Position numbers and translations under genes: made by a program. Shown one piece after another: positions 12,678-13,703 of a DNA stretch of 64,000 nucleotides; positions within the stretch are counted from its first letter, which is position 1, and each line of letters begins with the position of its first letter. The DNA comes from an uncultured archaeon (GTDB taxonomy: Archaea > Thermoplasmatota > Penumbrarchaeia > JASLWR01), in the NCBI GenBank assembly GCA_964430885.1, contig CAYSHM010000003.1, forward strand, positions 160,001-224,000. Reading direction: 5' to 3'. The notes beneath the pieces were generated by a model. The model was not told the origin of the DNA. It made no database searches and worked only from the letters and a program-made list of their open reading frames with translations.

Positions 12678-13703
12678 ATGAAAAACGATACTATAGGAAT
12701 TATTGAAACAAGGGGATTGCTGGATGCCTTTGTGGTAGCCGATGCCATAAGCAAGGGAACTCGTGCCAGATTGATAGGACGGCATATGCTGGGCGACGGC
12801 CTTGTCACACTCATTATCAAGGGCAGGAAGGATGTTGTCAGATCAGCCCTGGAAATCGCTGAAGCTTCTGCGGCTTACACCCGGAGTTTTTTAACCCGCA
12901 AGCAGATGCTTTTTGAGGAGGAGGATTGGAGCTGCGAAGATGACCCTGAAAATTTTAAGGCTGAAGAGGAGCGGGTAGACCTGTTCACACGTGAACAGGA
13001 CCGAACCATTGAACAACCACTTTCGGTCCCGGAAAGGGCCCACGTAATAGAGGAAAAGGGAAAATTCCTACGTGCGCCAGAAAAAACAGGGAAAATGTCC
13101 AAAGCCAGGGAAATAATGCTCAGAAGAGAAAAAATGGCAAGTTACATCTCATCGAATATGGAAAAGGACATAAAAACAGGAATCAATGATCTGGAGAAAG
13201 AATTTTCTGGCATCTCCCGTGCCACTATTCGACTGGACCTTAAAGAACTAATGGACAAGGGCATTGTGAAAAAGATAGGGCGAACCAGCGGAGCTTACTA
13301 TATCATTGCGGATATGAAAATGGAAGGAACAGAAACCAATGATTTCAAAGAAAAAGTAAAAAAGGGTATTAAGGCAAACATTAAAGGGAAAAAAGCTTGG
13401 AGAATAGATAAAAAGAGCCTTAAAATTCCGAAGAAACAAGAGAAAGCTAAGAAAAGCACTACCGATTCCCAAATAATACATTCTAAGAAAAAACTCAGAT
13501 CATCTGAAAGAAAGGAAAGAATGCTTGATTATATCGTTTCCCAATGCAATGCCGGAGAAAAGGTTTCTATCACCGATCTGGAGATCATCTTCACTGATGT
13601 TACAAGAAGGACCTTACAGTTGGACCTCCAGCATCTGAAGAAAAAGGGCCGTATAATCAAAAAGGGACAGACCAGGGCCTGTCATTGGGTACCAAAGAAT
13701 TGA
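12678..13703 (+). CDS. BMC-H shell domain fused to two DeoR-like winged-helix domains
   Basis: IGIIETRGLLDAFVVADAISK...GDGLVTLIIKG aligns with EutM/PduA; SRATIRLDLKELMDKGIV and TRRTLQLDLQHLKKKGRI are wHTH-like. Confidence 0.8.
   Translation: MKNDTIGIIETRGLLDAFVVADAISKGTRARLIGRHMLGDGLVTLIIKGRKDVVRSALEIAEASAAYTRSFLTRKQMLFEEEDWSCEDDPENFKAEEERVDLFTREQDRTIEQPLSVPERAHVIEEKGKFLRAPEKTGKMSKAREIMLRREKMASYISSNMEKDIKTGINDLEKEFSGISRATIRLDLKELMDKGIVKKIGRTSGAYYIIADMKMEGTETNDFKEKVKKGIKANIKGKKAWRIDKKSLKIPKKQEKAKKSTTDSQIIHSKKKLRSSERKERMLDYIVSQCNAGEKVSITDLEIIFTDVTRRTLQLDLQHLKKKGRIIKKGQTRACHWVPKN

Follow-up and report, generated by a model that had tools for sequence, protein, structure and literature searches.

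A BMC-H shell domain fused to two DeoR-like winged helices in a Thermoplasmatota archaeon: a possible link between microcompartments and DNA

Introduction

What does a microcompartment shell domain do when it is joined to winged helices, and in an archaeon? The question is raised by an open reading frame (ORF) in a 64,000-nucleotide stretch from an uncultured marine archaeon (contig CAYSHM010000003.1 of assembly GCA_964430885.1, here C3:160001-224000), hereafter the window. The ORF encodes a protein, the target, in which a hexamer-type bacterial microcompartment (BMC-H) domain precedes a tail with two DeoR-like winged helix-turn-helix (wHTH) units. An initial annotation of the window had taken this shell domain for an orphan that had been repurposed. 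The answer placed first here, and held tentatively, is that the target is a specialised hexameric shell-type subunit whose DNA-binding tails would lie on the cytosolic face and link compartments to DNA, as a tether or for DNA capture. In broader terms, attachment to DNA is probable either for the compartments themselves or for a regulator derived from their shell subunit.

Archaeal microcompartments (AMC) of the sugar-phosphate utilisation (SPU) type have been reported in Hodarchaeales, JASLWR01 and SpSt-1190 in a preprint of November 2025 (PMC12747264). In the sections of that preprint drawn on here, the K/R-rich tails of the AMC-P2 pentamer are stated to bind DNA, and SPU compartments are viewed, there and in PMC8217296, as processing DNA-derived deoxyribose phosphate. 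The premise of the initial annotation that BMC shells are essentially bacterial is thus outdated, since the reported archaeal cases include JASLWR01, the order to which the host belongs.

Results

A complete BMC-H fold precedes two related winged helices

The target ORF is intact and begins with ATG; an in-frame stop lies three codons 5′ of this start, and the open frame amounts to 344 residues. Its parts, in window coordinates, are as follows.

12678..13703, + strand: whole target ORF, 341 aa, a BMC-H domain and then a tail that holds two wHTH units
12678..12917, + strand: BMC-H domain, aa 1-80 (PF00936, AlphaFold2 model, Foldseek, alignment A5)
12918..13097, + strand: acidic linker, aa 81-140 (charge count, AlphaFold2 model)
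13098..13313, + strand: winged helix 1 (wHTH1, DeoR-like), aa 141-212 (HTH_DeoR match, model of the unit alone)
13314..13502, + strand: Lys-rich spacer, aa 213-275 (residue composition, AlphaFold2 model)
13503..13700, + strand: winged helix 2 (wHTH2), aa 276-341 (identity to wHTH1, model, alignment with paralogues)

For PF00936 (BMC), the match extends over aa 6-65 (positions 2-61 of the 75-position profile) and reaches 39 bits, above the cut-off of 24.5, with an E-value of 7.9e-10; it is the only PF00936 stretch in the target, giving a single BMC domain per chain. In an AlphaFold2 model built on a 42-row alignment, the domain adopts the non-permuted β-α-β-β-α-β order (strand 5-12, helix 14-27, strands 31-39 and 42-49, helix 51-68, strand 72-78) at block pLDDT values of 87-97. 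The final β-strand, L72-L78, is left unaligned by Pfam and is nevertheless present, because model residues 5-78 give the complete fold. Foldseek of the modelled domain retrieves the shell BMC-H proteins PduJ, PduA, CsoS1, EutM and HO (Haliangium) at target-normalised TM scores of 0.76-0.88, with root-mean-square deviations of 1.0-1.5 Å over 74-79 columns, and the pore loop reads L38-G-D-G-L42. By profile score and by fold, as one non-permuted domain, the target is therefore of BMC-H type, and one of the initial annotation's own grounds for abandoning its reading, a missing PF00936 match or BMC fold, falls away.

Further searches converge on the same domain. A PDB sequence search with the target yields 58 distinct sequences at E<=10; those with E < ~0.05 are BMC shell proteins throughout, a few non-BMC chains appear in the weak tail, and the best match is 6ner, a BMC-H tandem fusion (2.2e-11). 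The NCBIfam shell equivalogs (CsoS1, EutK, EutM and CcmO) cover the BMC part alone and score far under their cut-offs. A homo-oligomer prediction for aa 1-90 in four copies (alignment A3; score 0.05, mark 0.42) was run without controls and counts neither way.

The tail carries an HTH_DeoR (PF08220) match at aa 175-200, with 23.9 bits against a cut-off of 21; the match is partial (profile positions 23-47 of 57) and falls in the C-terminal half of the protein. The two winged helices share 23/61 identical residues (38%, E 2e-11), which indicates an internal duplication. Modelled alone, wHTH1 reaches a mean pLDDT of 82.8 and the H-H-H-E-E order of a winged helix, while wHTH2 is modelled at pLDDT 90-98, aligns with the single wHTH of the paralogues described below and is counted as its equivalent. 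The fold neighbours of wHTH1 include the DIP2311 C-terminal domain, PerR/Fur, RTP, ArsR/SmtB repressors, DsrD and Z-alpha (best E 4.6e-3), and the wHTH fold neighbours are mostly DNA-binding wHTH proteins. The PADLOC matches of the target itself (SoFic, AbiEi) span a wHTH only.

Between these folded units, the linker (aa 81-140) has a net charge of −8 and is mostly disordered or of low confidence, with one predicted helix at aa 91-108. The spacer (aa 213-275) contains 22 K+R in 63 residues, a net charge of +15, and is modelled as partly helical at low confidence. PF00936, HTH_DeoR and the model together uphold the annotated architecture of BMC-H domain, charged linker and two wHTH units with a Lys-rich spacer, and both family assignments of that annotation now stand above their profile cut-offs.

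DeoR regulators have an N-terminal HTH followed by a sugar-phosphate sensor domain. The target resembles them in its PF08220 match, but its HTH units are C-terminal and a Pfam search finds no sensor-domain match in it; by this domain order it falls outside the DeoR regulators.

The target lacks the tiling motifs of facet-forming shell proteins

Facet-forming, or basal, BMC-H proteins are described as marked by KAAN together with (P/A)RPH as inter-hexamer motifs, and BMC-H proteins extended at the C terminus by as many as 200 residues are described as existing, with probably specialised roles (both from the portions of PMC8217296 consulted). The corresponding positions in the target and its relatives read as follows.

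Canonical BMC-H of the same genome: KAAN position KAAK; (P/A)RPH position IPRPH
Group A fusion proteins of three related genomes: KAAN position IKGAN; (P/A)RPH position IPN
Fusion paralogue on contig C26 of the same genome: KAAN position SRSVK; (P/A)RPH position LPS
Target: KAAN position SKGTR; (P/A)RPH position none
Group B fusion proteins: D and K lost at the KAAN position; (P/A)RPH position not scored

The edge motif D22-x-x-x-K26 is retained in the target (alignment A5), and the same alignment confirms the initial annotation both on this kept DxxxK and on the missing IPRP. Being without both tiling motifs, the target is not a bulk facet protein; it differs from basal BMC-H proteins in these motifs and also in its locus, basal members being encoded in loci that also hold BMC-P and cargo enzymes. 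We would tentatively assign it, at somewhat less than even confidence, to the JASLWR01 AMC system as a BMC-H-type subunit that is specialised and non-basal.

The genome encodes a complete SPU-type microcompartment and a satellite operon

Within the window, a PF00936/PF03319 profile search finds no shell gene other than the target, in agreement with the initial annotation. The genome as a whole gives a different picture, with seven PF00936 and four PF03319 (pentamer) matches on contigs C6 and C26. On C6, at 78594-88507 (L032:4594-14507), lies a complete SPU-type locus. Its gene order runs from a 209-aa protein with one BMC domain through BMC-P, aldehyde dehydrogenase (Aldedh), a Complex1_51K/RnfC/4Fe-4S protein and a tandem BMC-T to a 171-aa BMC-P, TIM, RpiB, a third BMC-P, a canonical 97-aa BMC-H (C6:86443-86736) and a DeoC-type aldolase. 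The canonical BMC-H carries KAAK and IPRPH, and the aldolase has an N-terminal extension of ~270 aa. The 171-aa BMC-P2 ends in a K-rich C-terminal tail like that of the Hodarchaeales AMC-P2; judged by this sequence, the tail feature exists in JASLWR01 too. With P and H shell genes, AldDH and DERA in one locus, the genome corresponds to the archaeal SPU type as delimited in section 13 of PMC12747264. The target lies on another contig than this locus.

On C26, at the contig end (44222-45999, L033), a satellite operon encodes three proteins: a 91-aa BMC-P, a tandem BMC protein of 178 aa that is degenerate, and a paralogue of the target, 259 aa long, that has a single wHTH. The SPU locus and this operon contradict the picture of an orphan, repurposed shell domain, and the genome-wide search that the initial annotation had proposed thus does bring further shell genes to light.

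BMC genes also occur in the one other family of the class that has them (L034, G005:C56:9800-13278). There, on a GC-rich contig end, a BMC-domain ORF is cut by the end, and an adjoining 344-aa ORF resembles the ethanolamine ammonia-lyase small subunit by eye; the locus could be a module of EUT type, or else belong to a bacterial contig placed in the wrong bin.

The target belongs to a small family of BMC-H–wHTH fusions

A family profile of seven rows, scanned with HMMER over 1.84 billion representative proteins of all lengths, retrieves 4056 proteins at E<=0.001, which are ordinary BMC proteins, and seven at E<=1e-30. These seven are the target, the C26 paralogue, four further full-length fusions (209-234 aa) and one fragment. 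With an N-terminal BMC-H and a C-terminal DeoR-like wHTH, and standing apart from canonical BMC-H, the target is a member of this BMC-H–wHTH family. Among 401 sampled Thermoplasmatota genomes, 25 match the profile at E<=1e-5, and the two-domain matches are confined to four genomes of the target's taxonomic family, with exactly two genes in each; the remaining matches cover the BMC part (canonical BMC-H) or the wHTH part alone. A scan of JGI metagenomes adds one more fusion locus, whose layout is the same as that of one already known. A search for homologues of near-equal length returns the target itself only, and an Atlas search with the target gives no usable match.

The one-wHTH members fall into two groups with distinct surroundings. 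Group A (four genes and P0003) lies in a BMC-P / BMC-T-like / BMC-H–wHTH operon that is convergent with an M24 peptidase gene in 4/4 family genomes (loci C26 (L033), L015, L016, L017, L030, L031 and L040). The encoded proteins measure 90-91 aa (BMC-P), 178-179 aa (the degenerate tandem BMC, or BMC-T-like, protein) and 220-259 aa (BMC-H–wHTH), and the operon contains no enzyme gene. It amounts to a minimal pentamer/trimer/hexamer set in which the sole hexamer carries a wHTH. Group B (217-218 aa; three genomes and P0004-P0006; L026:1030-1683, L027:1495-2148, L035:1783-2436) is solitary and lies beside an SPFH/Band_7 gene and a double zinc-ribbon gene. The target's genome keeps the SPFH gene (C2:13138-14217) and has no group B gene beside it; the target is the second family member of its genome, in place of group B. 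This survey of architecture and synteny, which the initial annotation had suggested for Thermoplasmatota, thus places one-wHTH fusions in four genomes and the group A operon in every one of them.

The target and its one-wHTH paralogues share a clan and the order BMC-H, linker, basic stretch and DeoR-like wHTH, with 43% identity between the BMC domains of the target and group A. The paralogues measure 217-259 aa and have a single wHTH, whereas the target carries a pair, joined to its BMC domain by an acidic linker, and lacks an IP(R/N) motif. Group A further differs from the target in keeping the K..N of KAAN and 'IPN' (in three related genomes) and in lying beside BMC-P and BMC-T-like genes, the target being solitary. 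A maximum-likelihood tree of BMC domains, computed from 22 hand-picked rows (all fusion genes found, one canonical BMC-H of the genome itself and nine bacterial BMC-H of 150 listed), places the fusion proteins and canonical BMC-H on opposite sides of a branch supported at 100/99. Within the fusion clan, placement of the target by the C26 paralogue or by group B receives 88/85 and is drawn open.

The wHTH module also occurs elsewhere. Three wHTH-only carriers were annotated, two being Fic proteins and one a Schlafen/AlbA_2-HATPase_c_4 protein, and the DeoR-like wHTH is found as a C-terminal module on Fic/DOC (344-360 aa) and Schlafen/AlbA_2-HATPase_c_4 (452 aa) proteins (L036, L037, L038, L039). 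Judging from these sequences, Thermoplasmatota seem to use it as a portable module for DNA binding. Separately, P0046, P0067, P0075, P0089 and P0141 look like canonical BMC-H proteins but measure 210-335 aa, because each continues at the C terminus in a long low-complexity extension that ends in a conserved helical motif of ~40 aa; P0067 has a weak Rho_N match (E 0.0041, below cut-off). In these proteins the tail resembles a nucleic-acid binder, and they may form a further class of such shell subunits.

Host and assembly

The host genome comprises 3.13 Mb in 44 contigs and is 91.6% complete and 1.4% contaminated. Its 16S rRNA scores 1503.7 bits with the archaeal model against 1097.7 with the bacterial one. 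Archaeal RNA polymerase B (1570.7 bits, cut-off 1402), A′ (1345) and A″ are encoded in the window, ~30 kb downstream of the target, and the contig is therefore archaeal. The host belongs to Thermoplasmatota, order JASLWR01; the archaeal assignment already made from the sequence holds on both polymerase genes and 16S. In the A″ ORF (48509-51127, + strand, 872 aa), the A″ model (367 positions) matches residues 492-861 only; the ~490 N-terminal residues may be an insertion, an intein-like element or a fusion.

Metagenome contigs from two public marine runs span the whole 2.4-kb stretch around the target with 0 differences, and a third run yields a contig across 12677-13140, which starts at the BMC domain's first codon and reaches inside wHTH1. 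The four metagenome runs belong to one study, and two of them may be the source of this DNA. The chimeric assembly that the initial annotation had considered was looked for in these spanning and bridging contigs, and none was seen.

Transcription unit and neighbouring genes

The surroundings of the target contain the following features, read from the sequence.

12446..12480, + strand: terminator-like GC hairpin GCGGGGAATCATTTCCCCGC, then a T-run, after the upstream 1034-aa gene
12655..12669, + strand: AT-rich TATA-like stretch, 9-23 nt 5′ of the ATG
13758..14681, + strand: downstream 307-aa ORF of no recognised family, 55 nt past the target stop codon

The hairpin and T-run suggest that the target forms a separate transcription unit, and the TATA-like stretch is a possible archaeal promoter for a leaderless or short-leader mRNA. 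The downstream 307-aa ORF is possibly co-transcribed with the target. This ORF has no Pfam, PADLOC or Atlas match, and matches were found in 0/4 related genomes by a search that had no positive control.

Two candidate operators were considered and rejected. An inverted repeat, ATTTTTCAAT-N18-ATTGAAAAAT, lies 5′ of the target, but its arm (ATTTTTCAAT/ATTGAAAAAT) is present 65 times in the genome. The 8-mer ATTGAAAT is common to the target upstream region and three AMC-locus intergenic regions (4/6 regions), yet in 94/400 random sets of six intergenic regions some 8-mer was likewise common to at least four of the six, and the motif is not significant.

The neighbouring genes encode a TSP3-repeat surface protein, the ORFan just described, an MBL hydrolase and a UvrD/PD-(D/E)XK pair, and annotation of the neighbourhood shows no eut genes near the target. 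The 1034-aa surface protein (9310-12414, + strand) is predicted to be secreted or anchored; it contains a Big_7 domain and numerous Asp-rich calcium-binding repeats of TSP3 type, besides a transmembrane segment and a cytoplasmic tail rich in Pro and Lys. A second thrombospondin-3-like protein is encoded at 54906-57311. In the AddAB-like pair (15746-21413, − strand), one protein of 1022 aa is a UvrD helicase that ends in a PD-(D/E)XK nuclease, and the other, of 868 aa, is a PD-(D/E)XK protein; the pair is adjoined by a patatin phospholipase (21475-22239, − strand) and the MBL-fold hydrolase (14752-15507, − strand). Defence-type PADLOC matches here, of the UvrD-like protein to many GajB/DRT helicase models and of the patatin to phospholipase effectors, are all generic family matches.

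Discussion

A shell-associated DNA tether as the favoured reading

From the computed folds, the duplication, the family membership and the genomic context, we infer hexamer formation, shell association and DNA binding along the following lines. By homology, the BMC-H domain (aa 1-80) would form a cyclic hexamer. BMC-H termini are described as sitting on the concave face (in the consulted part of PMC5534457), and this face as pointing outward in solved shells (in that of PMC6787980); with its termini on the outward concave face, the hexamer would thus expose as many as 12 wHTH units, along with six polybasic segments, to the cytosol. The hexamer may join or dock onto the facets of SPU-type, deoxyribose-phosphate-processing compartments, while the tails (the C-terminal 260 residues) would bind DNA and thereby couple organelle to DNA. 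Such coupling could serve substrate capture, as proposed for the AMC-P2 K/R-rich tails, or positioning on the nucleoid. Within each chain, the tandem wHTH may additionally act as an intramolecular pseudo-dimer, providing its own bipartite DNA grip.

Several observations speak for this arrangement, namely the real BMC-H fold, the complete SPU-type AMC in the genome, the kept edge lysine, the membership in the fusion clan (100/99) and the position of group A inside a shell operon in 4/4 family genomes. In composition, the polybasic spacer (net +15) resembles the K-rich BMC-P2 tail, and the winged helices are putative DNA binders by their HTH_DeoR match above cut-off. The tether is ranked first because it fits both the SPU processing of DNA-derived deoxyribose phosphate and the stated DNA binding of the AMC-P2 tails. 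Among the roles proposed by the initial annotation, that of a shell–DNA tether gains most from the genomic context, and the regulator that had been its main idea now takes second place.

Other findings weigh against the tether. In alignment A5 the KAAN position of the target reads SKGTR, with the edge lysine alone kept, and an acidic run follows β4 in place of PRPH/IPRP. The target is encoded apart from any shell gene, apparently with a promoter and a terminator of its own. Its branch in the tree is long, at 1.12 substitutions per site, and no orthologue with two wHTH units appears in the HMMER scan, the 401 Thermoplasmatota genomes or the JGI metagenomes. Group B, solitary and without the edge D/K, indicates that the family includes members unlikely to tile. 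Moreover, the fold search with the wHTH gives generic and weak matches, not one of which reaches E<=0.001, and this leaves DNA binding, and sequence specificity with it, at the level of a prediction.

Alternative explanations

Because the target has no tiling motifs and is unlinked to shell genes, a free multivalent regulator has to be weighed against the tether; we consider it a real but less probable explanation. It would be a hexameric transcription regulator or nucleoid-associated protein acting outside shells, with the BMC domain as an oligomerisation scaffold, possibly ligand- or pore-sensing, and the wHTH units binding operators or coating DNA. The loss of the KAAN asparagine and of PRPH, the solitary gene in its own terminator-bounded unit and a DeoR-type HTH typical of sequence-specific regulators are all consistent with such a role, as are the portability of the same wHTH type as a C-terminal module on Fic and Schlafen/AlbA_2 proteins and the conservation and synteny of group B in three genomes in spite of its missing edge motif. 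However, the closest relatives (group A) reside inside shell operons in 4/4 genomes, the edge lysine is retained, no significant operator-like motif is common to the target and AMC promoters (94/400 random sets equalling or exceeding the best candidate), and the polybasic spacer resembles a non-specific DNA binder. It is improbable, but worth stating, that the enzyme-free BMC-P/BMC-T-like/BMC-H–wHTH trio and the bivalent target build a second, cargo-less, DNA-dedicated shell or patch, as a capsid-like particle or facet tethering, organising or carrying DNA, or else that the fusions are shell-titrated transcription factors whose hexamers leave DNA when built into shells.

Winged-helix folds are also used in protein binding, and the fold neighbours include the non-regulator winged-helix domains DsrD and RPC34; the wHTH units could then be protein–protein adaptors through which the BMC-H hexamer holds cargo, a further shell component or some factor of the cytoskeleton or of partition, the acidic linker beside basic modules allowing intramolecular masking. 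We regard this as improbable too, given the HTH_DeoR score above cut-off, the conserved recognition-helix pattern S/T-x-x-T-L-x-x-D-L, which Fic- and AlbA_2-associated wHTH units have as well, the polybasic spacer and a majority of DNA-binding repressors among the fold neighbours. That the gene is an artefact, whether of chimeric assembly, of bacterial DNA contaminating the bin or of decay to a pseudogene, is largely refuted and very improbable. Occurrence in a single species, the long branch and a 44-contig genome of 91.6% completeness and 1.4% contamination would fit it, but the ORF is intact with a defined start, identical sequence recurs in the contigs of several runs, and a contig from an independent sample bridges the junction of BMC domain and tail. 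In addition, the contig also carries, at a distance of ~30 kb, the genes for archaeal RNA polymerase B, A′ and A″, the 16S is archaeal, paralogues and shell loci recur in all four family genomes, and both wHTH units are modelled as confident folds.

Relation to known shell proteins

The nearest characterised analogue of the target is EutK, described in the consulted part of PMC5821096 as a BMC-H with a C-terminal HTH suggestive of nucleic-acid binding and with no assigned function. Both proteins carry a single BMC-H followed by a C-terminal HTH-type module on the concave-face terminus. Unlike EutK, the target has two DeoR-like wHTH units and a polybasic spacer, comes from a host of SPU rather than eut type, and lies outside shell loci. 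The NCBIfam EutK model scores it at 32 bits against a cut-off of 218, over the BMC part only, and the EutK C-terminal domain is absent among its PDB sequence matches and the listed wHTH fold-search matches. The identification of the target as EutK itself is rejected on this score, on the lack of detected tail similarity and on the absence of eut genes nearby.

The AMC-P2 of Hodarchaeales (PMC12747264, in the sections consulted) is alike in being an SPU-type shell subunit with a polybasic C-terminal appendage, to which the target spacer is similar in composition. It differs in that its carrier is a pentamer and its appendage purely disordered, whereas the target is of BMC-H type with two folded wHTH units. 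The main text of this preprint contains 0 mentions of 'HTH', 'helix-turn-helix', 'regulator' or 'transcription factor', and its supplementary tables may list BMC-H–wHTH genes; it is also the only result of a literature search for JASLWR01. In literature searches on archaeal microcompartments, the EutK HTH and winged-helix shell proteins, a BMC-H–winged-helix fusion was not found in print. The compartments of the host lineage and the idea of DNA-binding shell appendages are thus already known, and the BMC-H–wHTH family with its two-wHTH member is a new variation on them.

Significance

Shells were long held to be purely metabolic and purely bacterial, and archaeal compartments, whose vertex proteins are claimed to bind DNA through disordered basic tails, have only now been reported. 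The target locus represents an independent, folded-domain solution in an archaeal phylum other than that of Hodarchaeales, in which a hexamer-type subunit carries one or two winged helices. The fusion family is a second natural case beside EutK, whose HTH has gone without an assigned role ever since the structure was determined, and the question of why shell subunits would bind nucleic acid therefore becomes testable by comparison. If the target is a free regulator, it would be a clear case of a capsid-like shell fold recruited as the oligomerisation domain of a transcription factor. If instead a DNA-dedicated shell or a shell-titrated factor is involved, it would provide a direct functional link between shell and genome in archaea, and in the latter case shell assembly would feed back on gene expression. 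The family also offers synthetic biology a natural scaffold, a predicted six-fold ring displaying 6-12 putative DNA-binding modules.

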